Positions 10,505 to 58,696 of a stretch of DNA of 64,000 bases are shown here, piece after piece. Source of the stretch: Candidatus Moraniibacteriota bacterium (GTDB taxonomy: Bacteria; Patescibacteriota; Minisyncoccia; Moranbacterales; UBA2206). The stretch spans positions 13,665-77,664 of the forward strand of contig JBAQNM010000007.1 of the NCBI GenBank assembly GCA_049303795.1, read 5' to 3'. The notes under the pieces are model-generated. The model did no database searches. It was given only the letters and a program-made list of their open reading frames with translations, and was not told the origin of the DNA. The stretch's first letter is position 1. The number at the start of each line of letters is the position of its first letter. Made by a program: the position numbers and the translations under genes.

Positions 10505-10531
10505 TGTGATTTTATATTGATATTTTAAATT

Positions 10532-10936
10532 TTATCTTTTTTGTGTATCTAATATGCGTGATAGATCTTTTGCTCTTTCAGAATCAAATACTTTTTTTGC
10601 AGGACTTTTAGTCTGTATTTTTTGAGTAGCAACTGTTGGGTGGTATTCTTTTCTTTCAGCTACTCTGTGCCATACATATAATTTTGGTCGTTTAATGAAA
10701 AGAATCGATGAGCTGACAAGTTTTATTAGGGGTTGGTTGTAGGGTCGATAGAAAGCTAGGGCTCCAAAAATAACAGCGATTATAGCGGCAGAAAGAAAAA
10801 AAGTGGCCTTATCAAGTGTGCTATAAGCAATGAGAAGTATGACGCCACCAATTGCCAGCCAGCCAAGCTGTTTAGCGGTTAGTGGGCCAACGAGCTTATC
10901 TTCAATATCAATAAATTGAGGAATGTTAAAAATCAT
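10532..10936 (-). CDS. PrgI/VirB3-like small membrane protein
   Basis: 134 aa. IPQFIDIEDKLVGPLTAKQLGWLAIGGVILLIAY is followed by two TM helices. It sits immediately upstream of VirB4, as PrgI/VirB3 does in Gram-positive T4SS. Confidence 0.55.
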   Translation of the reverse strand: MIFNIPQFIDIEDKLVGPLTAKQLGWLAIGGVILLIAYSTLDKATFFLSAAIIAVIFGALAFYRPYNQPLIKLVSSSILFIKRPKLYVWHRVAERKEYHPTVATQKIQTKSPAKKVFDSERAKDLSRILDTQKR

Positions 10937-10949
10937 TTCTTTGTTTTTT

Positions 10950-12047
10950 TTATTTCTCTTTCAAGTTTATCACATTCTTTAAAATTTGTCTTGGTGTTGT
11001 GATGTTTGTGTTAGTTTGTTTCTGTGTGGTGGGAAGATTTTGATTAATATTTCGCGCCGAGGAAAGGATATTTTTTTCAGTTGAGAATGTTTGCGGTGAA
11101 GAAAAATGAATTCTACTTAGAGTAGGCTCTGTTGGTGTGCTTTCCAGTTTTTCTTTTTGTGGTAGGTCCTTGCGCCAAGCGCTGAGGCGATCGCTGTCAG
11201 ATTGAAAAGTGGCTGAATCATTTTTTGACACTTGAGCAGCTTCCAAATTAGTGTTGTATATGGTATTTGGGGTGGCTAGCGGTCTAGTTGCTCGTGGACG
11301 TTCCATTTGTTTTTCTAATACTGGTGGAAAGATGATCTGATAAATTTTATTGTTTATTGTGAGTAGGGTTTTTTCTTCGAAGGATTTTAGGATAAGAGCT
11401 AGTTTTTCCCGATCTTGGCTAGAAAGTTGTCGAGCATTCGCATTTTTGAATAAATAATTTCCCCGAACAATTGAATCGCGATTAGAAACACCAATATTAA
11501 AAGTGTAATCAGAGAGCCAATTTTTAATGGATGGTCGGACTAAATTAGGTGTGGTTGCAAGTTTAATTTGGTCAGAAGTGATTAATTGTTCAGCAATCTC
11601 AGGATATTTTTCCAGGGCATCTTCCAGTGACAATTTTTCTGTTTGAGCTTGGTAGGCTTTTTCTTGCGAGTCATCCCTGATTATTCTATTGAGAATTATT
11701 TGTGAAATTTCTTGGGCAATATCGGTGCTAATATTTATTTCTTTAGAGAAAATCAAAGGAAATTGTTCAAATTTAACTTCTCCAAAATAATAACCGCGAA
11801 TAGCTCTAGCGATAGTGGCTAGTTGGATGTAAGTTAGTCCGTATTTTTTTCCAATTTCTTGAATTTTTTCAGAAGACAGAAGTTTATCTTTAATTGGTTC
11901 TGGCAATAATAAAAACTTTCCTTGCCTTTCTTTTATATTTTCAACAGTTTCATCATCAGGATTTAGGGTTGTAAAAACAGCATAAGGGGTTACGCAGATA
12001 TATTTTTGCGCATCCGGTTTTAGTTTGGAAAATGGTATTTCTAACAT
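10950..12047 (-). CDS. Hypothetical protein, paralog A of a tandem pair
   Basis: 365-aa soluble ORF. It shares an N-terminal region (DPDDET..IKE+Q.KFL.LPE) and an internal block (NWLSDYTFNIG.SN..S..RG.YLFKN) with the adjacent ORF 12080..13435. Confidence 0.5.
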   Translation of the reverse strand: MLEIPFSKLKPDAQKYICVTPYAVFTTLNPDDETVENIKERQGKFLLLPEPIKDKLLSSEKIQEIGKKYGLTYIQLATIARAIRGYYFGEVKFEQFPLIFSKEINISTDIAQEISQIILNRIIRDDSQEKAYQAQTEKLSLEDALEKYPEIAEQLITSDQIKLATTPNLVRPSIKNWLSDYTFNIGVSNRDSIVRGNYLFKNANARQLSSQDREKLALILKSFEEKTLLTINNKIYQIIFPPVLEKQMERPRATRPLATPNTIYNTNLEAAQVSKNDSATFQSDSDRLSAWRKDLPQKEKLESTPTEPTLSRIHFSSPQTFSTEKNILSSARNINQNLPTTQKQTNTNITTPRQILKNVINLKEK

Positions 12048-12079
12048 AGTATAAATAATATTAGTTAATTTCGAGTGCT

Positions 12080-13435
12080 TTATAGGATCGCAGCAGCTCT
12101 CAGAGCCACAATGTTATCTCCATTAAGATTTTTTTTAATTTCAGTTCTTTCTTCAGGGGCAAAACTATAAAACCGTTTTTCGATAGCGTCACGAATTATT
12201 TTCTGTTTTTCATTTACTGGCGCTTCTTCTCTGCAATAAGAAGAGAGCGTATCGTGCCAATCTTGCTTGGTCCAATGAGCTGTGTCAAGATGGGTATAGG
12301 CATTTTCAACAATATATCTTTCTGTATCACTTAGTGTTGATAAGTTTTGCTCTTCTTTGATTTTTGCAATTTCTTCTGGAGTATTGAATTTGTGATAGAT
12401 AAGGATATCTGTTCGATTTTTTTGAATAATATTATTAATTGCCTTTTGTGAATTGATGTCTTTATTATGCATTAAAAAGGCAGTGTATATTTCCAGGGTT
12501 ATCTCATTTTTTTCAGCTAGAATATAGGCAGCAGCAGCATCTCCCTTTTCTGCTTTATCAATAAGTTCACTAGTTGGAAGATTTCTTTCTTTATATTCAT
12601 TAGCGATCTTTTTCAATGCATTGGCATCTTTCAAAAAATTATGCAGAATAATTTCAGAAACAGTTGATTGGGAAAGTTTTTTTTGCGAAATATCAAGTGG
12701 ATTTGCGAAGATGATTTGTTTTTTTTCTGTGTCTATTGTGAGCAAGGTTTTTTCTTCAAAGGATTTTAGGATAGAAGAAAGCCTTTCGCGATCTTGATTG
12801 GAAAGTTGATGACAGTTTTTATTTTTAAAAAGATAATCTCCCCGAATGGCAGAATTATGATTGGAAATGCCAATATTGAAAGTATAATCAGAGAGCCAAT
12901 TTTTGATAGTTGGTTTGGCGAGACTGGAATTCAGAGAGAGTGTTATAGGGGAGGCTGTTATTTGTTGTTTTTCAATTTCAGGATATTTTTCTAGTGCTTC
13001 AATAATATTTAATTCTTCTTTTTGTTTTAGAATTGCTTTTTCTTGAGAGTTGTCATTAATTATTTTGGTAATAATTATTTGTGAAATTTCTTCGGCTAAT
13101 TCCAGATCAATATTCATCTCCTCAGAAAGAATTGAGGATATTTCCTCTAGTTTGATTTTGTCAAAATAATAAAAAAGGATAGCGCGGGATATGTCAGCTA
13201 GTTGCAAAAGTTCCAGGTGGTATTTTTTTCCAATTTCTTGAATTATTTCAGCTGTTTGCGGAGAAACAAGTTTGTTTTTTGCTGATTCTGGTAATTTCAG
13301 GAATTTTTCTTGTTTTTCTTTTATTTGGTCAAAAGTTTCATCATCAGGATCTTTTGTCATTGAAACATCAAAAGGAGAAGTGCATCTCGCCATTAATAAA
13401 TCTCTATTTAACTGAGAAGATAATATTTTCAACAT
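12080..13435 (-). CDS. Hypothetical protein, paralog B of a tandem pair, with a C-terminal GDAAAAY-motif extension
   Basis: 451-aa ORF paralogous to 10950..12047. Its C-terminal extension contains KGDAAAAYILAEKNEITLEIYTAF, which recurs in the cytoplasmic tail of the VirB6-like ORF. Confidence 0.5.
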   Translation of the reverse strand: MLKILSSQLNRDLLMARCTSPFDVSMTKDPDDETFDQIKEKQEKFLKLPESAKNKLVSPQTAEIIQEIGKKYHLELLQLADISRAILFYYFDKIKLEEISSILSEEMNIDLELAEEISQIIITKIINDNSQEKAILKQKEELNIIEALEKYPEIEKQQITASPITLSLNSSLAKPTIKNWLSDYTFNIGISNHNSAIRGDYLFKNKNCHQLSNQDRERLSSILKSFEEKTLLTIDTEKKQIIFANPLDISQKKLSQSTVSEIILHNFLKDANALKKIANEYKERNLPTSELIDKAEKGDAAAAYILAEKNEITLEIYTAFLMHNKDINSQKAINNIIQKNRTDILIYHKFNTPEEIAKIKEEQNLSTLSDTERYIVENAYTHLDTAHWTKQDWHDTLSSYCREEAPVNEKQKIIRDAIEKRFYSFAPEERTEIKKNLNGDNIVALRAAAIL

Positions 13436-13450
13436 GACTTTTTTGACTTG

Positions 13451-15304
13451 TTACACAACTACACCCCCAGTGTTAGATCTTAAAGCGGCGGCATTGTTAG
13501 GGGTTAGTCTCTTTCGAACTTCATCTTTAGCTTGTCTTGGCATGCCATTCCAAGCGGTAATTGTGGCATTTATAATTCTAGCCCTTTCTGTGGTTTTCTT
13601 GTTGAATTCAGCTGTTTGTGCAGGTGTTGCACCTACTGGTAGTCCTGGTATGGGTTGTGTTATTGATGTCCAATCTTGATCATTCCATTTTTCAGCTGCA
13701 ATACTACCCATTTGTTGATTTGCAATGTATTGAGCTGTATCAATTGGTGCGTTGCCTGCAGCAACGGCTGCAGCACTAGCAGCGCTTGCGTTGGCTTGTG
13801 TTTGACGATTTCCAAGCTCATCTGGATCATTTGATTTATCAATTGCAACTAAATCATTTCTGCTTTGCTTAACCTTACTATTAATAGCTTTTCTAAGTTT
13901 TCCATCTTTATCTTCACCTTTAGCTTTAATTTTAGCTGTGAATGCAGAATAAGTAGCTTGATCCATGCTTTTATCTTCAGACAATCGATAAGCAGCAGCA
14001 GCATCTCCATTTGCAGCTCTTGATTTGAGTTCAACCTCTTCAAGTCCTTGCTTTTTATATTCCTCAGATTGTTTTTTCATGGCAGCCTCTTCAGCTCCCT
14101 TAACACCAAATTGTGCAGCCCTCCTCGCCGCTCTTGCATCAACATTTCTCTTTGAAATAGGACTATTATCACGCATTTGTTGCAACCTAGCTTGCACTCC
14201 ACCTGTAATTCCAGTTTGCTTTGAAACAAAACCAGCAGCGCCACCTAGTGGATTCTTTGCTAACCATTTTCCAGCTTTTATTCCACCATTCACAACCGCA
14301 TTGGCTCCAGCCAGACCAGATTTTTGCGCTTCAATAATTCCCAACCAAAGGACGATGACTGGCATTGAGAAAAAAGCTGCCTTCACAAGAAGATCTTGAA
14401 GAGGATTAGCAATTGTTGTTCCAGTTACTTGTGTTCCAGCTACGGTTTTTAATGTTCCAGATTGAAGGCTTATAACAGCAATCATTAATGAGTTAGCGAC
14501 AAAAAGCATAAATACCATAATTGGTCCGGAAAAACAATGCTTCATGAAGGTTGTCCACCATTCACTGCCGGAGCTGGCCAATTTTGTGCCAGGCAGAATT
14601 GAGCCAACAAAAGCAATCGGGGAAAACATAATATAGATTGCCAAAGTGACAGTTCTAATAACAAGCAGAACGGCTATAATAAGCAGTGTCATGCCAAAAA
14701 TGAAAGTAAAAATGATGGCAAAAAATAAAAAAACAAGTGATGGATCTTGGGTTGTTGAAAAGCTTGTTACCCCACTTCTATCAATAATAGAAACAAAGGA
14801 CGTGTTGCCTCCTAAGCCTTGCAAAAGACTGTACATGATAACATTAGAAACATCAACAATAAATCGCGCAATTGGGTAGCTGAAATTGACCAAGAGTGCC
14901 ATTATGATCAGATTTTGTAAAACTGCTTTATAGTTATATTTACTTACCTGGAAAACAGTGGCAAAAGCGGAAAAAAGCAAAACCATTATAAAAGCAATAT
15001 TAAAAACATCCCGAACTGCACGCCATGTTTCATAGACTGCGGCATTATTAATAATAGCTGTCATAACTTGAGGATCAACAATCCATTGAAAAATTACTTC
15101 AGCCATAGAAAGAAGGATTAAGACAGCATCTAGTATGAGCTGAAGAATTCCTTGTACAAGACCTTGTCCCCAAAAAGCGTTTGCTCCGTTAGAATAAAAA
15201 AAGACAAAAAATAAAACCAAAAAACCGACTGCCAGTAAGCTTTTTTTAGGATTATTTTTTTTGGTTAAGGCGACTTTTTGTTTTAATTTTGATAAAATTG
15301 ACAT
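13451..15304 (-). CDS. VirB6/TrbL-like polytopic membrane protein with a hydrophilic C-terminal tail
   Basis: 617 aa. It has an N-terminal signal/TM segment, multiple TM helices over about 350 aa, and then a charged C-terminal tail. Its position upstream of the PrgI-like and VirB4 ORFs matches Gram-positive T4SS organisation. Confidence 0.5.
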   Translation of the reverse strand: MSILSKLKQKVALTKKNNPKKSLLAVGFLVLFFVFFYSNGANAFWGQGLVQGILQLILDAVLILLSMAEVIFQWIVDPQVMTAIINNAAVYETWRAVRDVFNIAFIMVLLFSAFATVFQVSKYNYKAVLQNLIIMALLVNFSYPIARFIVDVSNVIMYSLLQGLGGNTSFVSIIDRSGVTSFSTTQDPSLVFLFFAIIFTFIFGMTLLIIAVLLVIRTVTLAIYIMFSPIAFVGSILPGTKLASSGSEWWTTFMKHCFSGPIMVFMLFVANSLMIAVISLQSGTLKTVAGTQVTGTTIANPLQDLLVKAAFFSMPVIVLWLGIIEAQKSGLAGANAVVNGGIKAGKWLAKNPLGGAAGFVSKQTGITGGVQARLQQMRDNSPISKRNVDARAARRAAQFGVKGAEEAAMKKQSEEYKKQGLEEVELKSRAANGDAAAAYRLSEDKSMDQATYSAFTAKIKAKGEDKDGKLRKAINSKVKQSRNDLVAIDKSNDPDELGNRQTQANASAASAAAVAAGNAPIDTAQYIANQQMGSIAAEKWNDQDWTSITQPIPGLPVGATPAQTAEFNKKTTERARIINATITAWNGMPRQAKDEVRKRLTPNNAAALRSNTGGVVV

Positions 15305-35420: not shown

Positions 35421-36362
35421 ATGCAAATCAAGGAATTGAAGACACAATTTTTGGAATATATGGAGATTGAGAAGGGGCGTTCTCAAAAGACCATTGAAAA
35501 TTATGATCACTATTTGAATCGTTTTTTGGACTGGTCAAAAATAACAAAACCTTCAGAAATTACAGTCGAACTGGTTCGGAATTTTCGTGTCTATTTAAAT
35601 CGGTTTGAAAATGAAAAAGGTGAAAGATTGAAAAAGGTAACGCAAGGGTTTTATGTTATCGCTTTGCGTAGTTTTTTGAAATTTCTAGCAAAACGGGATA
35701 TTTCAGCTCTACAAGCGGAAAAAATTGAAATTGGCAAATCAAGTTCTCGTGAGGTGGAATTCCTAGAGGTTGATGAAGTGGAGAGAATCTTAAATGAAGC
35801 AAATGGAAAGGATATAAAAGCATTGCGTGACAGGGCTATTTTGGAGTTACTTTTCTCTGCTGGCCTGCGTGTTTCAGAACTTACTAATATTAATCGAGAG
35901 AAAATTGACTTGAAAACTCAAGAATTGAGTGTGCGAGGCAAGGGTGATAAGGTTCGCGTAGTGTTTATTTCTAATGAAGCATCTTTGGCGATTAAAGAAT
36001 ATCTAGATAAAAGAATGGATGTTGATCCGGCCCTTTTTGTGCGGGATGTTGCTGGTTTGGCTAAATTCGAAAAAAAAGGCTCCAATAAAGCTGTGGATAA
36101 CCTGAGGTTAACACCAAGATCAGTACAAAGAATCGTCAAATATTATGCAACTAAAGCGGGAATTGTGAAAGATGTCCATCCACATACTTTGCGTCATTCT
36201 TTTGCTACAGATTTGCTTATTAATGGAGCGGATATTCGCTCAGTACAAGCCATGCTTGGGCATTCTTCAATCACAACAACACAGGTTTATACACACGTAA
36301 CAAATAAACAACTCAGAGAGGTGCATCAAGCTTTTCATTCAAGGAGAAAAAAGACTAAATAA
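35421..36362 (+). CDS. Tyrosine site-specific recombinase, XerC/XerD family
   Basis: N-terminal SAM-like domain. The C-terminal catalytic motifs are LRHSFATDLLINGADIRSVQAMLGHSSITTTQVYTHV (R..H..R..Y). Confidence 0.88.
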   Translation: MQIKELKTQFLEYMEIEKGRSQKTIENYDHYLNRFLDWSKITKPSEITVELVRNFRVYLNRFENEKGERLKKVTQGFYVIALRSFLKFLAKRDISALQAEKIEIGKSSSREVEFLEVDEVERILNEANGKDIKALRDRAILELLFSAGLRVSELTNINREKIDLKTQELSVRGKGDKVRVVFISNEASLAIKEYLDKRMDVDPALFVRDVAGLAKFEKKGSNKAVDNLRLTPRSVQRIVKYYATKAGIVKDVHPHTLRHSFATDLLINGADIRSVQAMLGHSSITTTQVYTHVTNKQLREVHQAFHSRRKKTK

Positions 36363-43777: not shown

Positions 43778-45565
43778 ATGATTAAATCGATATTAAGGAA
43801 TATCTGGAATTCAATTCAAAAACAGCCATTAGATATCTGGTTTTTTTGTTTATTTTTATTGACTTTTACGCTTAGTGTGAGAAAAGTAGTGTTATACTTT
43901 CCCATAAAAGGAACTCTGAATGAATATGCCGGCATATATGTTTATATGTCCGATGTATTTCTTTTTTTGGCGATCTTCGCTTGGTCGCTGATTATATTAT
44001 GCAATAAAAGAAGACAGCTGTCAATAGACAGTACTAGTATCTATAGACTTATCCACAGGATGTTCAAGAAAAATAGCATGGAAGAATTAGATAATCAGGG
44101 GTTATCCACAGAAGAAAAAGGCTATTTTAAAGTATTAATTTGTAATTTTAATAAAATGTTCCACGTGGAACATTTTCGAAGAAGGTTTAATTTAAAATGT
44201 TCCACGTGGAACAATAGACAGGACATTGTAATATTTGCTATTCCCCTTTTCTTTCTTTTTTGGTCTTTTTTCTCTATGTATTGGTCTGAAAATAAAGTCA
44301 TTAGTCTTTATCGCTCGTTTAAATTTTTAGAGGCATATCTTTTATTTTTGTATGTAGCATTTAGAATTGTTCCACGTGGAACATTTTTAGATGATAACGA
44401 TGGTAATAAGGATATAGTTAAAAAAGTAATTCCTTATTTTAAAGCTATTTTATTTGGTCTTATATTTATCACGTTGTTTGATCATTATTTGTGGGATATT
44501 TGGCAAGGTCAGGTTTTATTTTGGATTGCTTGTGGTTTATTGGTCGGTTTTGAGTTTTGTACCAGGAATGGTAGTAATTTTTTAGTTTGTAAGGGATATA
44601 AGCAATCAAATGAAGATCAGGTTAGTGTGAAAACTAATAATGTTCCACGTGGAACATCTACTATTATGAAGTCTTTTTTTGTTATAATCATAGGGGTTGG
44701 TTTTATTCAAGCACTAATTGGTATTTTGCAATTTATTTTAACACATTCTATTGGACTTTTCTGGCTAAAAGAGAGTCAAATTAGTCCGCATATTGCTGGT
44801 GTTGCTAAGATAATTTTTAATGATGATGTTTTTATTCGTGCCTATGGCTTATTTCCACATCCAAACATATTAGGTGGATTTCTTGTTTTCTCAATAATAA
44901 TTACTACTTTATATTTAAAAATGTTCCACGTGGAACATTTGAACAATAAATTACTTAAAAAATGTTCCACGTGGAACATTTTAAACAAAAAAGAATTTAA
45001 TAATGTTCCACGTGGAACATTTAGTATTTTTATTGATCTGATAAAATTTAATTATTTAAATGTTATTTTAGTAGCTCAATTCGTTGCTATTTTATTGAGT
45101 TTTTCTAAGTCAGCCATACTAGCTTTGATTATTGCATTTTTATATATCTATGTTCCACGTGGAACATCTTCCGTGGGTATGTTAAGAAAAATGTTCCACG
45201 TGGAACATTTTAAATTAAAAATTTCAATCCTAGCCGTGTTTATTTCTGGTGTTGTTTTCTTGAGTCTTAATTATGAAGCATATTTAATTAAATCAACAAA
45301 GGAAAGGATGGATTACATCGCTATTTCTTGGCAAATAATATCAAGCAATCCAATTATAGGTGTTGGCACTGGACAATATATAATAAACGCTGAAATAATA
45401 AATCCAAATTTAGCTTATTGGCAATATCAGCCTGTGCATAATGTTTTTCTTTTTATTTGGAGTGAATTGGGGATTGTTGGATTGGTTTTGTTTATTTTAT
45501 TTTTGTGGAAACTATTTCATCTCAATGAGGTTGAGAATGTTCCACGTGGAACATTTAAGGAATAG
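43778..45565 (+). CDS. O-antigen ligase family (Wzy_C-like) polytopic membrane protein carrying ten in-frame palindromic-repeat insertions
   Basis: 595-aa continuous ORF. The C-terminal region (NPIIGVGTGQYIINAEI..QPVHNVFLFIWSELGIVGLVLFILF) is paralogous to the Wzy_C ORF at 1..617. The interspersed peptides MFHVEH, NVPRGT and CSTWN are the same DNA palindrome read in three frames. Confidence 0.55.
   Translation: MIKSILRNIWNSIQKQPLDIWFFCLFLLTFTLSVRKVVLYFPIKGTLNEYAGIYVYMSDVFLFLAIFAWSLIILCNKRRQLSIDSTSIYRLIHRMFKKNSMEELDNQGLSTEEKGYFKVLICNFNKMFHVEHFRRRFNLKCSTWNNRQDIVIFAIPLFFLFWSFFSMYWSENKVISLYRSFKFLEAYLLFLYVAFRIVPRGTFLDDNDGNKDIVKKVIPYFKAILFGLIFITLFDHYLWDIWQGQVLFWIACGLLVGFEFCTRNGSNFLVCKGYKQSNEDQVSVKTNNVPRGTSTIMKSFFVIIIGVGFIQALIGILQFILTHSIGLFWLKESQISPHIAGVAKIIFNDDVFIRAYGLFPHPNILGGFLVFSIIITTLYLKMFHVEHLNNKLLKKCSTWNILNKKEFNNVPRGTFSIFIDLIKFNYLNVILVAQFVAILLSFSKSAILALIIAFLYIYVPRGTSSVGMLRKMFHVEHFKLKISILAVFISGVVFLSLNYEAYLIKSTKERMDYIAISWQIISSNPIIGVGTGQYIINAEIINPNLAYWQYQPVHNVFLFIWSELGIVGLVLFILFLWKLFHLNEVENVPRGTFKE
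44166..45554. repeat. Cluster of 10 copies of the perfect palindrome (A)TGTTCCACGTGGAACA(T). Copies are at 44166, 44207, 44368, 44640, 44921, 44962, 45003, 45150, 45191 and 45537. Sub-arrays have an exact 41-bp period and unique 23-bp spacers.
   Basis: Read directly from the sequence. The core is a 16-bp perfect palindrome, extended to 22-24 bp (AAAATGTTCCACGTGGAACATTTT) in several copies. It contains no stop codon in any of six frames. It was not seen elsewhere in the window. Confidence 0.9.
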
Positions 45566-45695
45566 TAGCATTATATTAAACAATAATTATGTATTTTTGT
45601 CAAATAGAACGCATTGAATTCTATTCTGAAGTGCAATTTTTTGTTGAAAAGATTAAAAACTGCTATTATTGAAATAATAAATAAATTATAATATC

Positions 45696-46100
45696 GTGGA
45701 AAAAGAACTATTTACAAAATCAATAATTAAAGAAAGAGAGCCTAATGAAAAAAGAATCTCAGTAATGTCAAGGCACACAAAAGAAGATGGCGTAACTCCC
45801 GATGAAAGAATAATAGAAAGAGTTACTTTTGATGAATGGCAAAAAGATTTCGCCCCTCCTGAAAAATTAGTCGGGGCTTATTATAGAAAGGAAATATTAT
45901 GGGAAGAATTTGAAAGAAAATATTTTGAATTTTTACGAAGTGACAAAATAAAACCAAAAGTTGAAGATTTTGCCAAGAGGTGTATTGAAGAAGTTATCAC
46001 ACTGATGTGTATTGAAGACACTGCTGATAAATGCCATCGTCGTCTGTTGGCCGAAGAATTACAAAGATACCAACCGCATTTAAAGATTATTCATAAATAA
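45696..46100 (+). CDS. DUF488 (YeaO-like) family protein
   Basis: 134 aa with the C-terminal DKCHRRLLAEEL motif characteristic of DUF488. Confidence 0.55.
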   Translation: MEKELFTKSIIKEREPNEKRISVMSRHTKEDGVTPDERIIERVTFDEWQKDFAPPEKLVGAYYRKEILWEEFERKYFEFLRSDKIKPKVEDFAKRCIEEVITLMCIEDTADKCHRRLLAEELQRYQPHLKIIHK

Positions 46101-46111
46101 ACACTAATACT

Positions 46112-46423
46112 ATGGAATTTAGAGAATTGCAAGAAAAAGTGGTTGCCAACGCTATGAGCTATGGCAAAAAATGTAACATTGAAATTGATGAGGATTTTGC
46201 ATTACTAAAATTATATGAAGAAGTGGGGGAGTTTGCTCAGGCAGTTTTAATTCATAGGAAAAAAAGTCGACCGGAAAAGCATATCTCAGAGGAACTTTCC
46301 AGAATAGAGCTAGGAAAAGAATTAGCAGATGTTGTTGGTATGGCAATTGTTAATGCGCATCTTTTTGGAATTGATTTGGAGGAGGCGATTGACAGGAAAT
46401 GGATTAATAGGTTGAAAAAATAA
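46112..46423 (+). CDS. MazG-like nucleoside triphosphate pyrophosphohydrolase (small all-alpha NTP-PPase)
   Basis: LYEEVGEFAQAVL plus ELADVVGMAIVNAHLFGIDLEEAIDRKW is the typical EExxE...D metal-binding pattern of the MazG/HisE fold. Confidence 0.65.
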   Translation: MEFRELQEKVVANAMSYGKKCNIEIDEDFALLKLYEEVGEFAQAVLIHRKKSRPEKHISEELSRIELGKELADVVGMAIVNAHLFGIDLEEAIDRKWINRLKK

Positions 46424-46507
46424 TTTTAAAATTATTAAAAAAATAGCCCGCAAGGTTTTTATTCCTAGGCGGGCATGGGGTTATTTTACTGTTTTTTTGA
46501 AATTTTC

Positions 46508-46792
46508 TTATGGAACTATATTCTCGAAAGAGGGGAAACCCTTTTCGCGCCACCATTCTTGAGATAATATTTCAATTCCATTTTCGGGCGGATTATTCTT
46601 AGTTGCCGCCCTTGCCCTTTCTTTAAGTTTTTCCAGTTTTTGATTTACCCGGAAAAACAAAGCGCTATTCCCTGGTGTTCCACAAAGATCCATTAATTCT
46701 CTTGAAAAAAAGAGATGATCCAGGAAGTCTGCATAAATCTTTGCCAATTCTACACTAATTTTTTTTTCCATAACCCCCCCTGAAAAGAACAA
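46508..46792 (-). CDS. Hypothetical protein
   Basis: 94-aa ORF with no motif. It is not AT-skewed like spurious ORFs. Weak call. Confidence 0.3.
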   Translation of the reverse strand: MFFSGGVMEKKISVELAKIYADFLDHLFFSRELMDLCGTPGNSALFFRVNQKLEKLKERARAATKNNPPENGIEILSQEWWREKGFPSFENIVP

Positions 46793-46898
46793 TTTAAGGT
46801 TAATAAGTCCCTGATGTATTAAATGTGAATATTGGTTAGTTTAAAACAGGCTAGCAAATAATTATGGTTTTGTCTAGTTTTTGTTTAGAAAAATTTTC

Positions 46899-47005
46899 TT
46901 ATAAAACGGTAGTAGAAGCCACCTTATCTCCGGCTTGTGGTTTCATCACGCGAACACCTTGATTTGCGCGACTGAGAGAGGTCTTTTTAGTGGAATGCAA
47001 ATGAT
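46899..47005 (-). repeat. Decayed duplicate of the gyrA 3' end (last ~35 codons plus the stop). It is the direct repeat partner of 51568..51675.
   Basis: About 80% nucleotide identity to the 3' end of gyrA, beginning exactly at the TAA stop. It would translate to ..[26 protein letters not shown], versus ..[26 protein letters not shown] for genuine GyrA. Confidence 0.8.
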
Positions 47006-47260
47006 TTAGAGGTGAAAAATAAATTGATCTCAGTATTATTAATAATATTAGTATTAACTATTTTTTTGGCTTTTAGGGGGTTAATAATTTTTAAAAATAA
47101 TTATACTATTTGACTAAGATATTAAAATAATCTAAAATGACGGCATAAGTCGTCGTTTTTTATTTGGCATAATTTTGCTTAATATAAAGTATTTTTAAGT
47201 TAGTCAATATAATAAATGACGAACTGTATTGATAAATTTAATTATTAAGAGTATAGTGCT

Positions 47261-48046
47261 ATGTTAAACGAAAACCAAAGAGCTAAAATAAAATCTGCTC
47301 TTTTACAATTAAATATGACAGAAAAAGAGATTGCTGTTTATATTTCAGTCCTGCAATTAGGGGAGTCTAGTATTCCAACTCTGTCCAAGGAAACCGGTTT
47401 TAGCCGGGGGACTGTCTACGATTTGGTAGAAAAGCTAAAAAACGGAGGATTTTTAGCGGAGATTAAAAAAGGCAAAAAAAGACGTTTCGTGCCGGAAAGT
47501 CCAACTAATAAATTATATAAAATTTTGGACGGAAAGCATGATCAACTTAAGAAAATGCAACACGAAGTCGATGAAGTTTTGCCAATTTTGCGTTCGATTA
47601 ATGCCAAAGAGGATTTCAAACCGCAAATACGAACCTATTTTGGAGAAAAAGGCTTTCGCCAAGTTTGGGATGAAATTTTTTCCTATGAAGGTAAAAATTT
47701 TTTGAGCATCGCGCGGATAGAAACATTCATTGCTTTTGCCGGAGAAGAATTTTTAGATGAAATTCTTTCTAGAAAAAAGAAGCTTGGATTTGTTAGTCGC
47801 GCAATCAACGAAGATTCACTTTTGGCTCAGAATATGCAAAACAAAGATACACAAGAAAACCGAGAGACACGACTCGTGCCAAAAGATTTTACATTCCCCT
47901 CAACAGAGATAATTTTCGGCGATAAAATTGCAATGTTCTCAACTGACAAAGAAAATATAATTCTTCTTGTTGAAAGCAAGGATTTCGCCGAAACTCATAG
48001 GGCATATTTTGAAATGATGTGGAAGTTTTTGGAAAAGTCCGTTTAA
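47261..48046 (+). CDS. TrmB-like HTH transcriptional regulator, paralog 2 of 4
   Basis: wHTH MTEKEIAVYISVLQLGESSIPTLSKETGFSRGTVYDLVEKLKNGGF plus a C-terminal domain of about 170 aa. Confidence 0.6.
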   Translation: MLNENQRAKIKSALLQLNMTEKEIAVYISVLQLGESSIPTLSKETGFSRGTVYDLVEKLKNGGFLAEIKKGKKRRFVPESPTNKLYKILDGKHDQLKKMQHEVDEVLPILRSINAKEDFKPQIRTYFGEKGFRQVWDEIFSYEGKNFLSIARIETFIAFAGEEFLDEILSRKKKLGFVSRAINEDSLLAQNMQNKDTQENRETRLVPKDFTFPSTEIIFGDKIAMFSTDKENIILLVESKDFAETHRAYFEMMWKFLEKSV

Positions 48047-48110
48047 TAGATTGTAGAGTTGCAAATCTGGGGAGCTATAAAAAAATTAAAAACACAAATA
48101 GGAGACTAAA

Positions 48111-48431
48111 ATGAGAAGATATAAAATAGCAGAAAGACCAGATAGGCTTTTGTTATCAAGTGCTCTCTTGCTAGATACTTTTGAAAAAAGAATTACTGCT
48201 ATCGTGAGAGTGGAATATGGTTGGTTTGATATCACAGTGTCTTTAATCAGGAGAAGTAATAAAAAATTAATTATTGAAGGATATCTGGTAGGTGGGTATG
48301 TCTATGGTAGTTATGATATAGACAGGGAAAAAGAATCCACCTACATCATAACAATTGAACCTTATCCCTGGGATGAATCTTCCGGCGAGCTTAAAGAGAA
48401 AAACAAATCTTATATCGAAATCGAAGACTAA
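48111..48431 (+). CDS. Hypothetical small protein
   Basis: 106-aa ORF inside the island. No motif. Confidence 0.35.
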   Translation: MRRYKIAERPDRLLLSSALLLDTFEKRITAIVRVEYGWFDITVSLIRRSNKKLIIEGYLVGGYVYGSYDIDREKESTYIITIEPYPWDESSGELKEKNKSYIEIED

Positions 48432-48452
48432 ATTAATAAAAAGGAGATAGAA

Positions 48453-48875
48453 ATGAAAAAACTAATTAAAGTCTTGATTATTGATGAAGATCAGCGTCAA
48501 CTCGATAATTTATCTTTATTTCCTGGTTTGGAAATAAAAATAAATAGTTCTATGGAATATGGAATTAAAGAAAATTTTTCGAAATTTGATTTCATATTGA
48601 TAGGGCTGTCAAATAATTCTCTTAGTGGGTTAACGCTACTAAGAAGATTAAAAAAATTTAATTGGAGGTTTGCGCAAAAAAGACGAACTAAAAAGATAGT
48701 AATTATGAGTGAATTCGAAAAAATTGATTTCAACCTTGAGGAGTTTTATTGTCTGGTGGAAAGTTCGCTTTTTTGTTGGATGGAAAACTTTAAGTTTAAA
48801 GAAAACTACTATTTTTCTAAAGGCGACTTGAGAAAACCCTATAATGGAGTCTTGAGCTCCTTGCTTAAGTTATAA
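48453..48875 (+). CDS. Hypothetical protein, weakly receiver-domain-like
   Basis: 140 aa. KVLIIDEDQ...FDFILIGL resembles the start of a CheY-like receiver, but the motifs are incomplete. Confidence 0.3.
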   Translation: MKKLIKVLIIDEDQRQLDNLSLFPGLEIKINSSMEYGIKENFSKFDFILIGLSNNSLSGLTLLRRLKKFNWRFAQKRRTKKIVIMSEFEKIDFNLEEFYCLVESSLFCWMENFKFKENYYFSKGDLRKPYNGVLSSLLKL

Positions 48876-48885
48876 AGGAGAAAAA

Positions 48886-49101
48886 ATGAGCCAGAAAAAG
48901 ACAGAAGATTATCTTGAACTTTTAGAATTTCTTCTTCTGAAAATGGCTCATATTTCTATTGAGCCCGAAGAAGGAAGCCTCAGTCAAATTGTTGAAAGAT
49001 GTAAGAAATGTTCAGAGAAACTTAATCAAATCATTAATGCTCTTGAAGCATTAAATGGTTTTTCTTTTTTGCTTAACAAAAATATGGAGGTAGAAAAATG
49101 A
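48886..49101 (+). CDS. Small ORF (71 aa) translationally coupled (ATGA overlap) to the radical SAM gene. It is a candidate precursor or partner peptide.
   Basis: AT-rich ORF ending in ..NKNMEVEK. Its stop overlaps the ATG of ORF 49098. Confidence 0.3.
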   Translation: MSQKKTEDYLELLEFLLLKMAHISIEPEEGSLSQIVERCKKCSEKLNQIINALEALNGFSFLLNKNMEVEK

Positions 49102-50486
49102 AGGTATTAATTCTTGATCCGAGCTGGCCAGGAAAAAACGCAGTGTCTAGCGAAAAGATTGTCACTGCCTCAACGGGCGGTGCTCCCCAGCAAAATGAGG
49201 GCGCGATGTGCGTGGCTCAGGCAGCCCGCATGGCTGGTCATGAGGTGGAATATTTTCAGGCGCCGTATCACGGGTCGCCTGAAGATGTGCTGGCTAAAAT
49301 CGAAAACATTGCTGTGCTGGCATTATCACTGATGCAGTGGAACACACCTGTGGGGTTGCGATTTGCCCAAAAGGCGAAAGAGATCAATCCTATGGTAAAA
49401 GTGGCGGTGGGCGGCGTTTCACCTACATGCGTGCCCGAGCATTACTACAAAAATCCTTCAATCGATGCGGTGTTTGTCAGAGAGGGAGAAGAAATTTTTG
49501 TCAAATGGTTGAATGCGGGCATGCCCAGTGGAATTTTCAAAGCTAGTCGCGTAATCGACTGGGCAAAATATCAAGCGCCAGTTGATCAAACCATCCTCAA
49601 AAATCTGTATTTCCGAGGCCTGGCACCGGCTGGCAATGCGTGGGGATTCTATTTTACTCGAGGTTGTGCCGGTCGGTGTAAATTCTGTTGCACCCCGCAT
49701 GTTTTTCCAGGCGGAGAAATTGCAGATGATGTTTTAGGTGCTATTCGTCGGTTAATTCATCTTCGCGAACAGGGAGTTATGGGTGTGGACATCGCCAATG
49801 CCACTTTCAATGATAACCCTACTCTTGTAAGATATTTCTGCGAAAGCCTCATTTCGTCTGGGCTGAAGATGCCATGGACAGCTATGTGTGGCACGCACGG
49901 TGTCGACTTTGATATTTATTCATTAATGGCCAAGGCTGGCTGTTTCAAAGTTGGCTTCGGCATTGAAAATGCGACCCAACAAGGTCGCAAAAAGCTCGGT
50001 AAAAGAGGTTTTGCATCAGATAAATGTCATGACAGTGTTTATGCAGCACATGACGCCGGGTTACTTATCAGAGGATTTTTAATGATAGGTTCACTGGAGG
50101 ATGACGAGCAAACAATTGATTCTGTCAAAGAGTTATTAACAATGTTACCCATTGATGATCCGCGATTGGCGTTTATCACACCATTCGCCGGAACTACGTT
50201 CCACAAGCAGATGGTATATAGTGGACAAATCATCGACGATGATTGGAGTCATTATACTACCAATCGACCCGTCATTGGCACCGAAGATCGAGTCATGGAA
50301 CTTATAACTATGCAGCGGGAGATTATTCACTGGTTTTGGGCAGAGGGGCCTGGGCGATCGCAGATGATCAAACGTCTTTATAATGACCCTACAGCTTGGG
50401 TTTCGCGTTATCATCGATTTCTCACCAGAGACATAATTCCAAATGGATTTTTACGACCGGAAGAAGTTCCAAGTGAAATTTTGTAA
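49098..50486 (+). CDS. B12-binding-domain radical SAM enzyme
   Basis: N-terminal Rossmann-like cobalamin-binding-type region (KVLILDPSWPG...VAVGGVSPT). It is followed by the rSAM cluster motif GCAGRCKFCC (Cx3Cx2C) and a TIM-barrel-like core. The GC content is visibly higher than the surrounding genes. Confidence 0.8.
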   Translation: MKVLILDPSWPGKNAVSSEKIVTASTGGAPQQNEGAMCVAQAARMAGHEVEYFQAPYHGSPEDVLAKIENIAVLALSLMQWNTPVGLRFAQKAKEINPMVKVAVGGVSPTCVPEHYYKNPSIDAVFVREGEEIFVKWLNAGMPSGIFKASRVIDWAKYQAPVDQTILKNLYFRGLAPAGNAWGFYFTRGCAGRCKFCCTPHVFPGGEIADDVLGAIRRLIHLREQGVMGVDIANATFNDNPTLVRYFCESLISSGLKMPWTAMCGTHGVDFDIYSLMAKAGCFKVGFGIENATQQGRKKLGKRGFASDKCHDSVYAAHDAGLLIRGFLMIGSLEDDEQTIDSVKELLTMLPIDDPRLAFITPFAGTTFHKQMVYSGQIIDDDWSHYTTNRPVIGTEDRVMELITMQREIIHWFWAEGPGRSQMIKRLYNDPTAWVSRYHRFLTRDIIPNGFLRPEEVPSEIL

Positions 50487-50538
50487 GATTATTTTGAGAA
50501 AAATATAGTAGGCTATATATTTTAAAAGGAGACACGTC

Positions 50539-51480
50539 ATGAATGAAATTATCAGGCTTCATATTTTTCCTAGAGTAAGTTGGACATGGGACGAGTTTGT
50601 TGCAAAAACTCCTAAAAATTCAATTGCTTTGGACGGCATGGTCAAAGGAGGACCACGTTTTGACGAAGAAACAAGGCATATAAATTTTGACCATCACGAT
50701 GGAGTTATTCGTGAAGCCACTATGAGTACTGCTATGCAAGTTTTCATGGCAATAAAAGGCGGCTTAATGCAATCCTTTCGAGAAAACGGGCATCCTTCTG
50801 CTAATGTTTATATCAATGATACCGATCAAGATACAACATTAGCTGTTTGGCTATTAGGCAAATATCATCTTTTTGAAGGAACGCAAAGCTATCCATTAAT
50901 AAGCCGTTTGCTTTTTTTGGAAGACAAATGGGATATTACTGGAGGCGCCTTTCCAATTAGCCTAAGCGATAACCTTGTTTGCCAGCATGCCTGGATTTTC
51001 TATCCATATACATGCTTAAGAAAATCTGGGAAGTTAGCCAGTGCGGATGAAAATGTTCTCCGAGATAATATCGAAGCAAGCATAAAAAGGCTTGATGATT
51101 ATTTTATTGGAAAGGCAGGAGAAGAAGAAATAGATATACGGCACGAAATACTTTATGATTCTGCTAATTTTAAAATCATAAAAGAAATCGGCGGCGATGC
51201 CAGGCAATTTCTTTTTGGAAAAGGGCTGAATGCTTTTATAAGTCTTGTAACTGTTAGAGAAGATGGCCGATTCGTATGGAGCATTGGCAGGCGTTCAAAA
51301 TTCATACCTTTTCCTGTTCCACAACTATATATTGATTTTAATGAAGCGGAAGGTCTAACTGCTTTAAATGGCTGGGGCGGATCAGATATAGTGGGTGGTT
51401 CATCTCGGGAATTCGGCAGTAAGCTGATGTGGGAAAAACTTGCAGAAATTACCGAGAAGAGATTGAAAATAATTATGTAA
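50539..51480 (+). CDS. Hypothetical protein of intermediate GC content
   Basis: 313-aa ORF with no recognised motif. Last gene of the gyrA-flanked island. Confidence 0.45.
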   Translation: MNEIIRLHIFPRVSWTWDEFVAKTPKNSIALDGMVKGGPRFDEETRHINFDHHDGVIREATMSTAMQVFMAIKGGLMQSFRENGHPSANVYINDTDQDTTLAVWLLGKYHLFEGTQSYPLISRLLFLEDKWDITGGAFPISLSDNLVCQHAWIFYPYTCLRKSGKLASADENVLRDNIEASIKRLDDYFIGKAGEEEIDIRHEILYDSANFKIIKEIGGDARQFLFGKGLNAFISLVTVREDGRFVWSIGRRSKFIPFPVPQLYIDFNEAEGLTALNGWGGSDIVGGSSREFGSKLMWEKLAEITEKRLKIIM

Positions 51481-51520
51481 CAACACAACAAAACAAATCC
51501 TGCACTTTGAAAAAATAAAA

Positions 51521-51552
51521 AACCCGACGTTTATTATAGCGCCGGGTTTTAT
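51521..51552. terminator. Bidirectional rho-independent terminator between the island and gyrA
   Basis: Stem aacccgacg / cgccgggtt with an A-run before and a T-run after. Confidence 0.5.
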
Positions 51553-51567
51553 ATTTATTTAAGATTT

Positions 51568-54012
51568 TTATAAAACCGCAGTAGCAGCCACTTTATCTCC
51601 GGCTTGTGGCTTCATTACACGAACACCTTGAGTAGCGCGACCGAGAGAAGATATACTTTTCAAAGGAATGCGAATAATTTGACCTTTTTCAGAAGTAAGA
51701 ATCAGGTCAGCTTCCAGATTATCGATATTGATAATATTAGCACCAACTAATTTACCGGTTTTTGTAGTGATGGAAGCGGTTTTTATTCCGGAACCACCTC
51801 GCTTTTGGATTTTGTAATATTTAATATCAGATCTTTTTCCATAACCATTCTCAGTAATAACTAATAGTTGATTGCCTTTTTGTCCCTTAAAAAGGACATC
51901 CATTCCAACAACCAGGTCGTCTTTTTTTAGTTTTATACCGCGAACACCAGTAGCAGCGCGTCCCATTGAGCGAACATCGCTTTCCTTGAAGTGGATTGCT
52001 TGACCTTGTGAGGTCGATACAACTACTTCGTCTGTTCCAGTTGTTGCGCTAACCCAGCGGAGAGCATCACCCTTATCAAGTTTAATTGCAATAAGTCCGG
52101 AGCGTCTGACATTTTCAAATTCTTCCAGAGTAGTTTTTTTGACAGTTCCCATTTCAGTTGCCATGAAAAGATATTTATAACTATCATCTTTATTGAAGGC
52201 AATAATAGCAGTGACTTTTTCTTCTTGTGAAAGTTGTAGGAAGTTTACAATTGATTGTCCTTTGGAAATACGGGATGATTCAGGCAATTCGAAAGCTTTA
52301 GTTTGGAAAACTTTTCCGTTGTTAGTAAAGAATAAGAGATTATCATGGGTCATAACGCCGAGTAGTTTTTCAATTTCATCACCTTCTTTAGTTGATGCTC
52401 CAATTACACCTTTTCCTCCACGCTTCTGAACTTTATAAACAGTTGGGTTCATTCTTTTAATATAACCTTCTTTGGAAATAGTGATGATGGCTTCTTCGTC
52501 AGGAATCAAATCTTCTTGACGAAATTCTGTTAGGCCTGATTTAATGATTTTTGTGCGACGTTCATCACCAAACTTTTCTTTAACACGATTTAATTCGTCC
52601 TTGACGATAGCTAGAATTTTCTTTACGCTTTTTAGGATAGCTTCAAGTTCAGCGATTAATTTTAATTTTTCCGCTAGTTCGTCTTCAATTTTCTTTTGTT
52701 CGAGTCCGGCAAGGGTTTGCAATTTCATTTCCAAAATAGCGGTTGTTTGACGATCCGAGAGTTTGAATTTTTTCATCAAATTAACATGCGCTTCTTCTTT
52801 TGTTTTGGATTTTTTGATGGTTTCAATTACGGCGTCAATATAATCCAGCGCTTTTTTTAGACCTTCTAGGATATGAGCGCGATCCTGAGCTTTTTCAAGA
52901 TCAAAACGTGTTTTACGAGTGATCACTTCTTTTCTGTGAGCGATATAATATTCAAAAATTGCTTTTAAATTAAGCACGGTTGGCTCAATTCCATCAACCA
53001 ATGCTAGCATATTAACACCAAAATTCTTTTGAAGATCAGTTAATTCATATAGTTTATTGAGGACTTTTTGTGGATAAGCGTCTTTTTTAAGATCGATTAC
53101 AAGGCGAACTCCATCTTTATCAGATTCATCACGAATATCACGAATACCAACAATTTTTCCTTCTTTCACAAGGTCAGCCATTCTTTCAATCATGGTAGAT
53201 TTGTTGGTGGCATAGGTCATTTCAGTGACAATAATTTGAAAAGCGCCAGCTTTATTTTCATGAATGTCGGCTTTGGCGCGAGTTAGGATTTTTCCACGAC
53301 CAGTTTTATAGGCTTCAACAATATCTTTTTTATTATAAATAATTCCTCCAGTAGGAAAGTCTGGACCTTTTACGAATTCACATAGATCGTCAACTGTAGC
53401 ATCAGGATTGTCAATAAGATGACTAATACCTTCAATTAATTCAAATAAATTGTGTGGAGGAATATTAGTCGCCATACCAACGGCGATTCCCATTGATCCG
53501 TTGAGAAGTAGCTGAGGAAGATTAGATGGGAGAACAGTTGGTTCTTTATGCTGTCCATCAAAGTTGGGTACAAAATCGACAGTATTTTTTTCAATATCAG
53601 TGAGCATTTCTTCAGCAATACTAGAAAGTTTTGCTTCAGTATAACGATAAGCAGCTGCGCTGTCTCCGTCCATCGATCCAAAGTTTCCTTGACCTTTAAC
53701 TAGGGGATAGCGTAAGGAAAAGTCTTGAGCCATACGTACCATAGAGTCATAAACAGCTACATCTCCGTGGGGGTGATATTTTCCCAAAACCTCTCCAACT
53801 ACTGTGGCAGATTTTCGAAATTTGGCATTAGCACGCAGTCCTGTGTTCCACATCGAATAAAGAATACGGCGATGAACTGGTTTCATGCCATCACGCACAT
53901 CAGGAAGAGCACGCGCAACAATCACGCTCATGGCATAATCCAAATAGGATTGTTGAATTTCTTCAGTTATTTCACGGGGCTGAATATTTTCCAGCTCAAT
54001 TTTCATTTCCAT
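51568..54012 (-). CDS. gyrA: DNA gyrase subunit A
   Basis: The QRDR-region block [26 protein letters not shown], the active-site Tyr region AAAYRYTE, and C-terminal beta-pinwheel repeats. 814 aa. Confidence 0.95.
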
Positions 54013-57952: not shown

Positions 57953-58696
57953 ATGGAAATATTAGAGGAAAAATTAAAGCTTTTAGGGTTAAATGAAAAA
58001 GAAGCCATAATATATCGGGCGATATTACAAGGGAAAAAAGCAACAATCATAGATCTTGCCAAAGCGACAGGGACAAAGAGAACGACAGTTTATCATTGTT
58101 TAGATGCTTTAGTGGAAAAAAGTTTGGTGAATAGGGTCATGAAAGATGGGCATAAATATTATTATGCTGAAGATCCAGAGGAGAGTTTAAAATTAATACT
58201 CAAGGAAAAAGAGGATGTGATTAAGAAATTAATTCCTGATTTGAAATCTATATTCGGCACAAATCTTTATCAGCCGGAAATTGAGATATATAGAAATATA
58301 AATGGAATCCGAAAAATCTTAGAAGACATACTTAGTGTTAAAGAGTCAGTAGTTAGATATTACTTATCTGAATATAATGTGGAAGACATGGCTGGAGCGG
58401 ATTTTGTAGATGAATTTGTAAAAAAAAGAATTGCCTCAGGAGTGAAAAGCTTGGCGCTTCGATCATTTAAGTATAAGCCTGAAAGGGAGAAGATTTCAAC
58501 GCATGCTAAGCAGCTTCGAGAGGTGCGCTTCGTTCCGGAAAATATAATTATCAAACCATATATTTGTATTTATGATGATAAGGTGACAATGATTTCCACA
58601 AAAGAAGAAAAGCTGGGCTTTATAATTAAGTCGCATGAATTTGCCGAAGCACAAAAAGCGATTTTTGATATGATTTGGAATGGGGTGGCTATATAA
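57953..58696 (+). CDS. TrmB-like HTH transcriptional regulator, paralog 3 of 4
   Basis: wHTH LNEKEAIIYRAILQGKKATIIDLAKATGTKRTTVYHCLDALVEKSLV plus a C-terminal domain. Confidence 0.6.
   Translation: MEILEEKLKLLGLNEKEAIIYRAILQGKKATIIDLAKATGTKRTTVYHCLDALVEKSLVNRVMKDGHKYYYAEDPEESLKLILKEKEDVIKKLIPDLKSIFGTNLYQPEIEIYRNINGIRKILEDILSVKESVVRYYLSEYNVEDMAGADFVDEFVKKRIASGVKSLALRSFKYKPEREKISTHAKQLREVRFVPENIIIKPYICIYDDKVTMISTKEEKLGFIIKSHEFAEAQKAIFDMIWNGVAI

Follow-up and report, generated by a model that had tools for sequence, protein, structure and literature searches.

How did a decayed copy of the 3′ end of gyrA come to lie 4.6 kb beyond the gene that it resembles? The question is raised by a stretch of 64,000 nucleotides from Candidatus Moraniibacteriota bacterium (positions 13,665 to 77,664 of contig JBAQNM010000007.1, assembly GCA_049303795.1), called the window here, in which positions are counted from the first letter. 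The host is an uncultured member of Moranbacteria (Patescibacteria, which are also called the candidate phyla radiation, CPR), and the GC content of the window is 35%. An intact gyrA of 814 aa (51568..54012, minus strand) is accompanied by a relic of its own end (46878..47074, minus strand), and a first-pass annotation made from the sequence alone had taken the DNA between them for an island inserted site-specifically at the gyrA terminus. The explanation favoured here, to which we give an even chance, is that the relic is an old recombination scar, in which two alleles of a hotspot between gyrA and the neighboring Wzy gene were joined in series by general (RecA-type) recombination and no integrase of an element was involved.

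The gyrA 3′-end relic

The sequence at 46878-47074 is a non-functional pseudogene fragment of the gyrA 3′ end, and its counterpart in the alignment is the last ~196 nt of the functional gene (51568..51763, minus strand). The best-kept core of the relic (46899-46979) starts at the TAA stop, and in translation this distal copy is in frame with the gyrA tail protein up to that stop. Without gaps the repeat covers 84 nt at 87% identity (46896-46979 against 51565-51648), with gaps it covers 116 nt at 81%, and the local alignment score was 146, compared to 21.5 ± 3.1 for shuffled sequences. The inner part, further from the stop, is decayed to ~65% identity with deletions of 4 nt and 10 nt, and the weaker collinear extension to 47074 (51763 in gyrA) scored 44 against 29.4 ± 4.2, a value reached by 4 of 300 shuffles. 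The longest exact match between the copies is 17 nt (CCACAAGCCGGAGATAA).

A gapped search of the whole window returned a single match (46878-47074, 218 columns, 71% identity, E = 6e-28), no second copy of this kind was found elsewhere in the window, and the repeat is not low-complexity sequence. The direct repeat that the first-pass annotation had described, starting at the stop codon, is thus present where it had been placed, and the self-comparison proposed as a check on its boundaries gave this one match. Its estimate was ~105 nt at ~80% identity, but the true extent is longer, reaching ~196 nt. The genes that it had listed between the copies (a TrmB-like regulator, three small open reading frames (ORFs), a GC-richer B12-binding radical SAM gene and a gene for a 313-aa protein) were also correctly named.

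An assembly artefact was ruled out because positions 45600-51700 were 100% identical in three metagenome-assembled genomes (MAGs) and four Logan assemblies. All seven of these same-population assemblies carry the insert, and no strain without it was found among them. No known RNA family was matched at the relic or at the gyrA tail, and a promoter scan near the relic gave 7 sites against 4.5 ± 1.9 expected, which is not above chance. A bidirectional terminator-type hairpin common to the convergent genes gyrA and o313, the latter encoding the 313-aa protein, was found at 51507..51562 (-20 kcal/mol; z = -4.7 and -3.3), and no equivalent was found downstream of the relic (z = -0.4).

Past the stop codons no relatedness between the two copies was detected (score 16, shuffles 19.4 ± 3.6), and no direct repeat other than the gyrA tail flanks the interval. 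This bears on the idea of an in-place duplication, in which a segment running from ~200 nt inside gyrA through the downstream DNA was copied in tandem or during break repair, and its redundant parts were later lost or replaced. Such a duplication would need no foreign partner and would account for the two tails being each other's closest match. It is nevertheless improbable, since the gyrA tail alone is duplicated while the sequences after the stop are unrelated, since it takes more steps than a single recombination, and since the short tail duplicates of relatives described below are not tandem either, their spacer being unrepeated.

The gyrA-Wzy interval across Moranbacteria

Loci around gyrA were fetched from 80 species-representative and 80 metagenome sequences, and the counts below are given over 155 related Moranbacteria loci, which are designated by L and a number. 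The order LactB-o129-gyrA followed by a convergent Wzy gene was conserved, and gyrA and Wzy flank the interval in nearly all loci. The spacer between them ranges from ~70 nt to 6 kb, with the interval of the window being the largest; in 11 genomes it is only 70-270 nt, from which a tight convergent gyrA-Wzy pair is taken as the likely ground state. The cargo of the spacer over the clade includes TrmB regulators, NUDIX, NYN, HD, Fic, AbiEii, MazG-like and DUF488 proteins and others. The close relatives L037, L042 and L035 differ by whole cassettes, which are inserted immediately past the hairpin that terminates gyrA; neither a duplicated tail nor a recombinase accompanies them. Judged from these gene orders, the gyrA-Wzy intergenic space is a hotspot of gene flux. 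TrmB regulators were the commonest cargo, with 13 of 123 hotspot ORFs.

The blocks on the two sides of the relic were each found next to gyrA in other genomes. The block outside it (45696..46792) consists of a DUF488 gene (45696-46100, plus strand), a MazG-like gene (46112-46423, plus strand) and orf94 (46508-46792, minus strand); the MazG-like gene (88% identity) begins 164 nt past gyrA in L037/L116, and the DUF488 gene (83%) begins 68 nt past gyrA in L124. The block inside it begins with the TrmB261 module (47108..48046, plus strand), made up of an upstream region, an orphan intrinsic terminator (47134-47159) and a gene for a TrmB-family regulator (47261-48046), and at least six loci have similar modules downstream of their gyrA (L025, L035, L042, L060, L106 and L120). 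Because both blocks adjoin gyrA elsewhere, the window looks like two alternative hotspot arrangements placed in series.

The DNA of the TrmB261 module (47108-48036) was 86-88% identical to the modules downstream of gyrA in L035, L042 and L060, 80% identical to L089 and 78% identical to L025. TrmB261 was 85-93% identical to its counterparts in L042 and L089, although GyrA was only 82% identical; as the GyrA proteins of these genomes reach only ~82% identity, the module is likely to have been exchanged more recently. A conserved gene of 112 aa (55-80% identity) precedes TrmB in L035, L042 and L089, and the homology of the window to the TrmB loci begins exactly past the expected end of this gene. 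The window does not have the 112-aa gene but has kept its downstream intergenic region with the terminator at 47134-47159, and the relic stands in its place. About 35 nt (47075-47109) between the end of the gyrA homology and the start of the TrmB-module homology match neither. At least three or four TrmB-family paralogues occur in the window within ~15 kb (47261-48046, 57953-58696 and more to the right of 58 kb).

An exact empty site, in which gyrA is followed by orf94, was not found in the sampled genomes, because orf94 is an ORFan whose sole database match is itself and because no sampled genome is closer than 95% GyrA identity. In the nearest sampled relatives (L009 and L094), the GyrA protein is 95% identical to that of the window, whereas nucleotide identity of the gene is only ~81%. 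In L089 and L090, no gyrA end was found after the cargo genes.

Origin and age of the duplicate

The two tails of the window are 84% identical over 87 nt, while the tail of any relative reaches 76% or less, and they share derived residues that are absent from the nearest relatives. The partner DNA therefore came from the organism's own lineage or one very closely related to it. In their best block the copies have diverged by 13%, compared to 19% for the gyrA orthologues of the nearest sampled species, and this divergence together with the frame-breaking indels points to an old event. To polarise the event, gyrA was also compared along its length for an abrupt change of nucleotide identity towards the 3′ end, but none was seen, the closest relatives being uniformly ~81% identical.

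In Moranbacteria, cassettes have repeatedly been gained, lost and swapped in the short spacer on which gyrA and Wzy converge. Other lineages have gyrA followed either by the MazG-like/DUF488 block or by a TrmB-headed block, and the window has both, in the order live gyrA end, TrmB to o313 operon, gyrA-end fragment and orf94-MazG-like-DUF488-Wzy. By the likeliest route of recombination, we infer, DNA from a very close relative or from a sister chromosome would have been taken up or re-circularised. It may then have been joined either by homology-facilitated illegitimate recombination (HFIR), in which crossing over at a conserved flanking gene (gyrA or Wzy) is coupled with an illegitimate join, or by a single Campbell-type crossover within the ~200-nt gyrA-end homology. 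By either route, the gene end would be duplicated, gyrA would stay intact, and the 112-aa gene would be removed with its terminator left behind.

Insertion is coupled with deletion in HFIR, and a gene end is duplicated when a molecule carrying a fragment of it integrates by a single crossover (PMC3240628). Features of both are present in the window, where conserved anchors (gyrA and Wzy) lie by the insert and the insertion is coupled with the loss of the 112-aa gene. An illegitimate junction of the HFIR type would be expected to show a microhomology of 3-10 bp. A similarity that ends at the stop codon is also what would be expected when orthologous ends with different downstream contexts are juxtaposed. 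The com genes are conserved across CPR, and natural transformation with homologous recombination of DNA has been reported in Saccharibacteria (PMC10633639).

Several points weigh against the recombination scar. The parental arrangement before the event was not found among the sampled loci, and either block could be the newcomer. Insertion by an integrase, too, classically leaves a direct repeat of a gene 3′ end that stops at the stop codon, and for protein-gene targets such repeats are known to reach ~250 bp (PMC7192596). Other lineages also have tail duplications at this terminus, a recurrence that could indicate site specificity. The uneven identity of the relic (87% near the stop and ~65% inward) is not predicted by simple neutral decay of one import. 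In addition, the host's capacity for DNA uptake and RecA-dependent recombination is presumed from the literature on CPR.

Composition of the interval between the two copies

The interval between the two copies holds six genes, all on one strand. After the TrmB261 gene come three small ORFs of 106, 140 and 71 aa (48111..49101, plus strand), which had no family match. The N-terminus of the 140-aa ORF (MKKLIKVLIIDED...) resembles a receiver domain by eye. The order in L089 is Wzy, a 111-aa ORF, TrmB (85%) and the radical SAM gene (81%), and the three small ORFs of the window are lacking. As TrmB and the radical SAM gene are only 24 nt apart in L089, the small ORFs (48037-49085) represent a further insertion/deletion difference.

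The gene for the B12-binding radical SAM enzyme (49098..50486, plus strand) has a GC content of 46.7%, compared to 35% for the window. The protein matched general B12-binding radical SAM models far below their family cut-offs, and the gene is rare, with only three close homologues among 5.8 billion proteins. The two such genes of the window (49098-50486) and L089 (2759-4144) have 45-47% GC in genomes of 35-37% GC, and on one JGI contig a homologue stands in tandem with a second B12-binding radical SAM gene. In the window, the start of the gene overlaps the stop of the 71-aa ORF (ATGA overlap).

The last gene, o313 (50539..51480, plus strand, 313 aa), belongs to a large conserved Patescibacteria family with >300 matches at 57-71% identity across the group, for which no Pfam or NCBIfam model was found. 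Its AlphaFold model (pLDDT 91.9) gave DHH-family phosphoesterases as the best structural matches (PPX1 2qb6, PggH 7d62 and the pyrophosphatase 4rpa); these were weak overall (E 8e-4, TM ~0.3), and the invariant DHH and NDTDQD motifs of the family agree with them. The protein is predicted to be a divergent two-domain DHH-type phosphoesterase, and the DHH-like fold excludes o313 as a cryptic recombinase. Relatives of o313 were found away from gyrA in clusters of TrmB, a small ORF and o313, the usual linkage being to a TrmB regulator and a small ORF; in L091 such a cluster comes after the CCA-adding enzyme. The TrmB (62%) and the small ORF of these clusters differ from those of the window. Members of the family were also found at L090 2268-3206 and L091 4109-5056.

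By these comparisons, the "island" is a mosaic in which four or more modules, each with its own history, are combined, namely TrmB, the three lineage-specific small ORFs, the radical SAM gene and o313. The operon was put together in several separate steps.

Search for mobility machinery

In the six proteins of the interval, no mobility or integrase family was found with Pfam, PHROGs, NCBIfam or PADLOC, as the first-pass annotation had stated for integrases. No transposase family was matched among them, and a duplication of ~200 nt far exceeds a target-site duplication; terminal inverted repeats were also absent from the boundaries of the interval. Neither the DNA nor the proteins had viral, phage or plasmid relatives in IMG/VR and in phage and plasmid collections. 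No defence system was found inside the interval. Outside it, the DUF488-N3a protein (45696-46100), beside the MazG-like gene, matched the PADLOC candidate defence protein PDC-M45C (E = 2.6e-14).

A diversity-generating retroelement was likewise rejected: no reverse transcriptase domain was found in the interval, of the ~10 substitutions that the last 87 nt contain, about half are not at adenines of the non-coding copy, and indels are present too.

Across the relatives, no tyrosine or serine recombinase was found in the gyrA-Wzy interval of the 155 loci or among the 123 hotspot ORFs. Among the 1,043 ORFs within 9 kb downstream of gyrA in these loci, none was a recombinase except a housekeeping Xer in three rearranged genomes. 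The Xer protein of the window (35421-36362), which had earlier been named as its only tyrosine recombinase, is the sole Xer-like protein found there. It is a conserved housekeeping orthologue: it sits among core genes, at least 15 relatives encode an orthologue (E ~1e-150), and its model scores are those of XerC/XerD/XerA.

These results bear on a decayed integrative element, in which an attP site with a ~200-nt gyrA-like tail would have integrated and supplied the present terminus, after which the integrase was lost and the cargo remodelled. The direct repeat of a gene end, the intact ORF and the repeat ending at the stop would all fit, the size of the repeat is known for protein-gene targets (PMC7192596), and the GC content of the radical SAM gene looks foreign. 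The 17-nt exact match also lies in those codons at which the short duplicates seen in other lineages start, but a run of this length is expected by chance in 84 nt at 87% identity (estimated probability roughly 0.7). Against such an element, no integrase was found at the site in any of the 155 loci, including the seven with tail duplicates, and no relatives turned up among viruses, phages or plasmids. The modules of the cargo are of a chromosomal type and are found apart from one another in other genomes, the whole not recurring as a unit, and the blocks inside and outside the relic are both ordinary gyrA neighbors in other lineages. A decayed element is accordingly regarded as a serious rival, though a rather unlikely one.

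Of the earlier claim of insertion at the gyrA terminus, one part stands, as the interval is extra compared to many relatives and duplicated termini recur; a site-specific single element of 4.6 kb is not supported, with no recombinase, no recurring unit and no phage, plasmid or viral relatives. The island with an integrase that was to be sought in other genomes did not turn up at this site in the 155 loci.

Short gyrA tail duplicates in relatives

A second copy of the last 13 gyrA codons and the stop was found 43-58 nt past the real stop in 7 of the 155 loci, belonging to five lineages: L034 (11612-11711) with L114 (4570-4669), L057 (12442-12527), L096 (3390-3490), L115 (12436-12535), and L133 (2549-2648) with L134 (10630-10729). 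These duplicates are real, since L034 and L114, and also L133 and L134, are independent assemblies with identical sequence. In four of the lineages the spacer is 57-58 nt, and the second tail follows directly on a conserved hairpin (AAGGRAGTCCGCCTnnGGmGGA) at the spacer's end.

The paired short tails differ mostly at synonymous sites. In L114 they share 12 of 13 aa and 30 of 42 nt; in L057 they share 13 of 13 aa and 33 of 42 nt, with an AGT/TCT switch of serine codons. Because of this pattern, juxtaposed orthologous ends fit the short duplicates better than in-place duplication followed by decay. Compared to the tails of the nearest relatives, differences amount to only 2-4 nt of 42, too few to polarise. 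The short duplicates may be recombination scars, mini-inserts or products of a site-specific event. As duplicated gyrA termini recur in the clade and the interval is extra relative to many relatives, the gyrA 3′ end is a point of repeated recombination at which the coding end is preserved.

Other accounts of the short duplicates were rejected. A tandem duplication does not fit, the spacer not being repeated, and stop-codon readthrough does not fit, the frame and the intervening stops being inconsistent between loci. The idea that the adjacent hairpin is a mobile element specific to gyrA was dismissed, because GC hairpins of this generic type are dispersed elsewhere. These AT-rich genomes have many short GC-rich hairpins (TCCGCC...GGCGGA type) and further GC-rich palindromes at scattered positions, coding regions included (for example L115 4771-4789, L132 7400-7418 and L157 9455-9471, and inside Wzy ORFs such as L042 18328-20241), which resemble a dispersed repeat class of the repetitive extragenic palindromic (REP) kind. 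In L058 (MAG UBA2206), the gyrA tail seemed to be disrupted by a repeat; comparison with the near-twin L056 revealed a 40-nt duplication with NN at a scaffold join (8059-8098), an artefact that shifts the gyrA reading frame.

The recurrence of the duplicates raises a further explanation, namely insertion in trans by the host Xer, in the manner of integrative mobile elements exploiting Xer (IMEX), which lie between dif-like sites where chromosome dimers are resolved, or by another recombinase recognising the gyrA terminus, with integrase-less cassettes that include ~100-nt mini-inserts. The terminus has been hit repeatedly, the four lineages with a 57-58-nt spacer have the same hairpin abutting the second copy of the last 13 codons, and a single Xer is encoded in these genomes. 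These four lineages may, however, share one ancestral event, the hairpin is the generic type just described, and the events differ in how much was duplicated (~200, 42 and ~47 nt). No dif-type palindrome, even an imperfect one, was evident in the repeat, which is a coding gyrA tail. Finally, the locus lies beside gyrA and a dense parS array (described below), which suggests an origin-proximal position and not one at the terminus. Insertion in trans is therefore judged highly improbable.

There is also a slim chance of a bolder version, in which the last ~13 gyrA codons are a true site-specific target for integrase-less cassettes that bring their own replacement terminus, with catalysis in trans by Xer or an unrecognised recombinase. 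Such cassettes would range from ~100-nt hairpin-bearing mini-inserts to multi-kb operons and would be a new host-dependent gene-capture system in CPR.

The Wzy gene, the parS array and the wider locus

The conserved convergent neighbor of gyrA that bounds the hotspot is a Wzy_C (O-antigen-ligase-like) gene (44081..45565, plus strand). Ten perfect copies of a 16-bp palindrome, TGTTCCACGTGGAACA, which we take to match the canonical ParB-binding parS consensus, were found inside this ORF at 44157-45553, often 41 nt apart. None would be expected by chance, and the rest of the window has zero copies. None of the ten palindromes interrupts the ORF, and they are read as MFHVEH, CSTWN or VPRGT depending on the frame. 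Perfect palindromes were found in the same Wzy region beside gyrA in 85 of 166 sequences (165 loci and the window), with up to 13 per locus. The array would be an unusually dense chromosomal centromere inside a gene for a membrane protein, conserved across Moranbacteria. By a crude motif check, no ParB gene was found in the window.

Clades differ in the orientation of the LactB-o129-gyrA-Wzy block with respect to its flanks, an inversion seen when L009-L022 and the window are set against L020-L087: distant relatives have the order S1(-)[block]CCA(+), whereas the window and its close relatives have CCA(-)[block]S1(+). In L069 and L163, the gyrA match (10001-13588) covers ~3.6 kb instead of 2.4 kb, which suggests that GyrA of this lineage has an insertion of ~1.15 kb in its N-terminal part, possibly an intein.

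Comparison with known systems and implications

The locus resembles integrative elements that target the 3′ ends of protein genes and restore them with a fragment carried on attP, such as icd-targeting prophages, in that a direct repeat of a gene end brackets several kb, the target ORF is intact, the displaced copy decays, and a repeat of ~200 nt is in the known range (PMC7192596). Unlike these elements, the locus of the window and the same site in 155 relatives contain no integrase, excisionase, phage gene or conjugation gene, the insert is mosaic, being put together from chromosomal modules, and an empty attB whose flanks match was not found. The locus is therefore not to be filed as an integrative element, as the defining integrase was tested for and not found.

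The products of HFIR and Campbell-type integration (PMC3240628) are similar to the locus of the window in that the insert adjoins a homologous anchor, the resident 112-aa gene is lost, the gene end is duplicated and no dedicated recombinase is needed. They differ in having been shown experimentally in other bacteria at a scale of ~1 kb, whereas the event in the window is ancient and its parents were not found.

A third comparison is with a general concept of comparative genomics, that of flexible genomic islets, or integration hotspots, which lie between core genes that are conserved. The same gyrA-Wzy position likewise holds different small cassettes in each lineage. At such hotspots, part of the core gene alongside is not usually left in duplicate, whereas the window has a duplicated gyrA end, and shorter duplicates recur in the clade.

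Gene gain in CPR/Patescibacteria is poorly known, and classical integrated elements are rarely seen there. The locus described here is a concrete, datable case, in which the essential gyrA survived a rearrangement through its duplicated end, and in which a regulator-headed operon with a rare, foreign-looking radical SAM gene was assembled stepwise at one hotspot beside a putative parS centromere. It is a useful case study rather than a surprise. If the relic is indeed a recombination scar, it would support the view that genes move in this group mainly by exchange of the transformation type and not by mobile elements.

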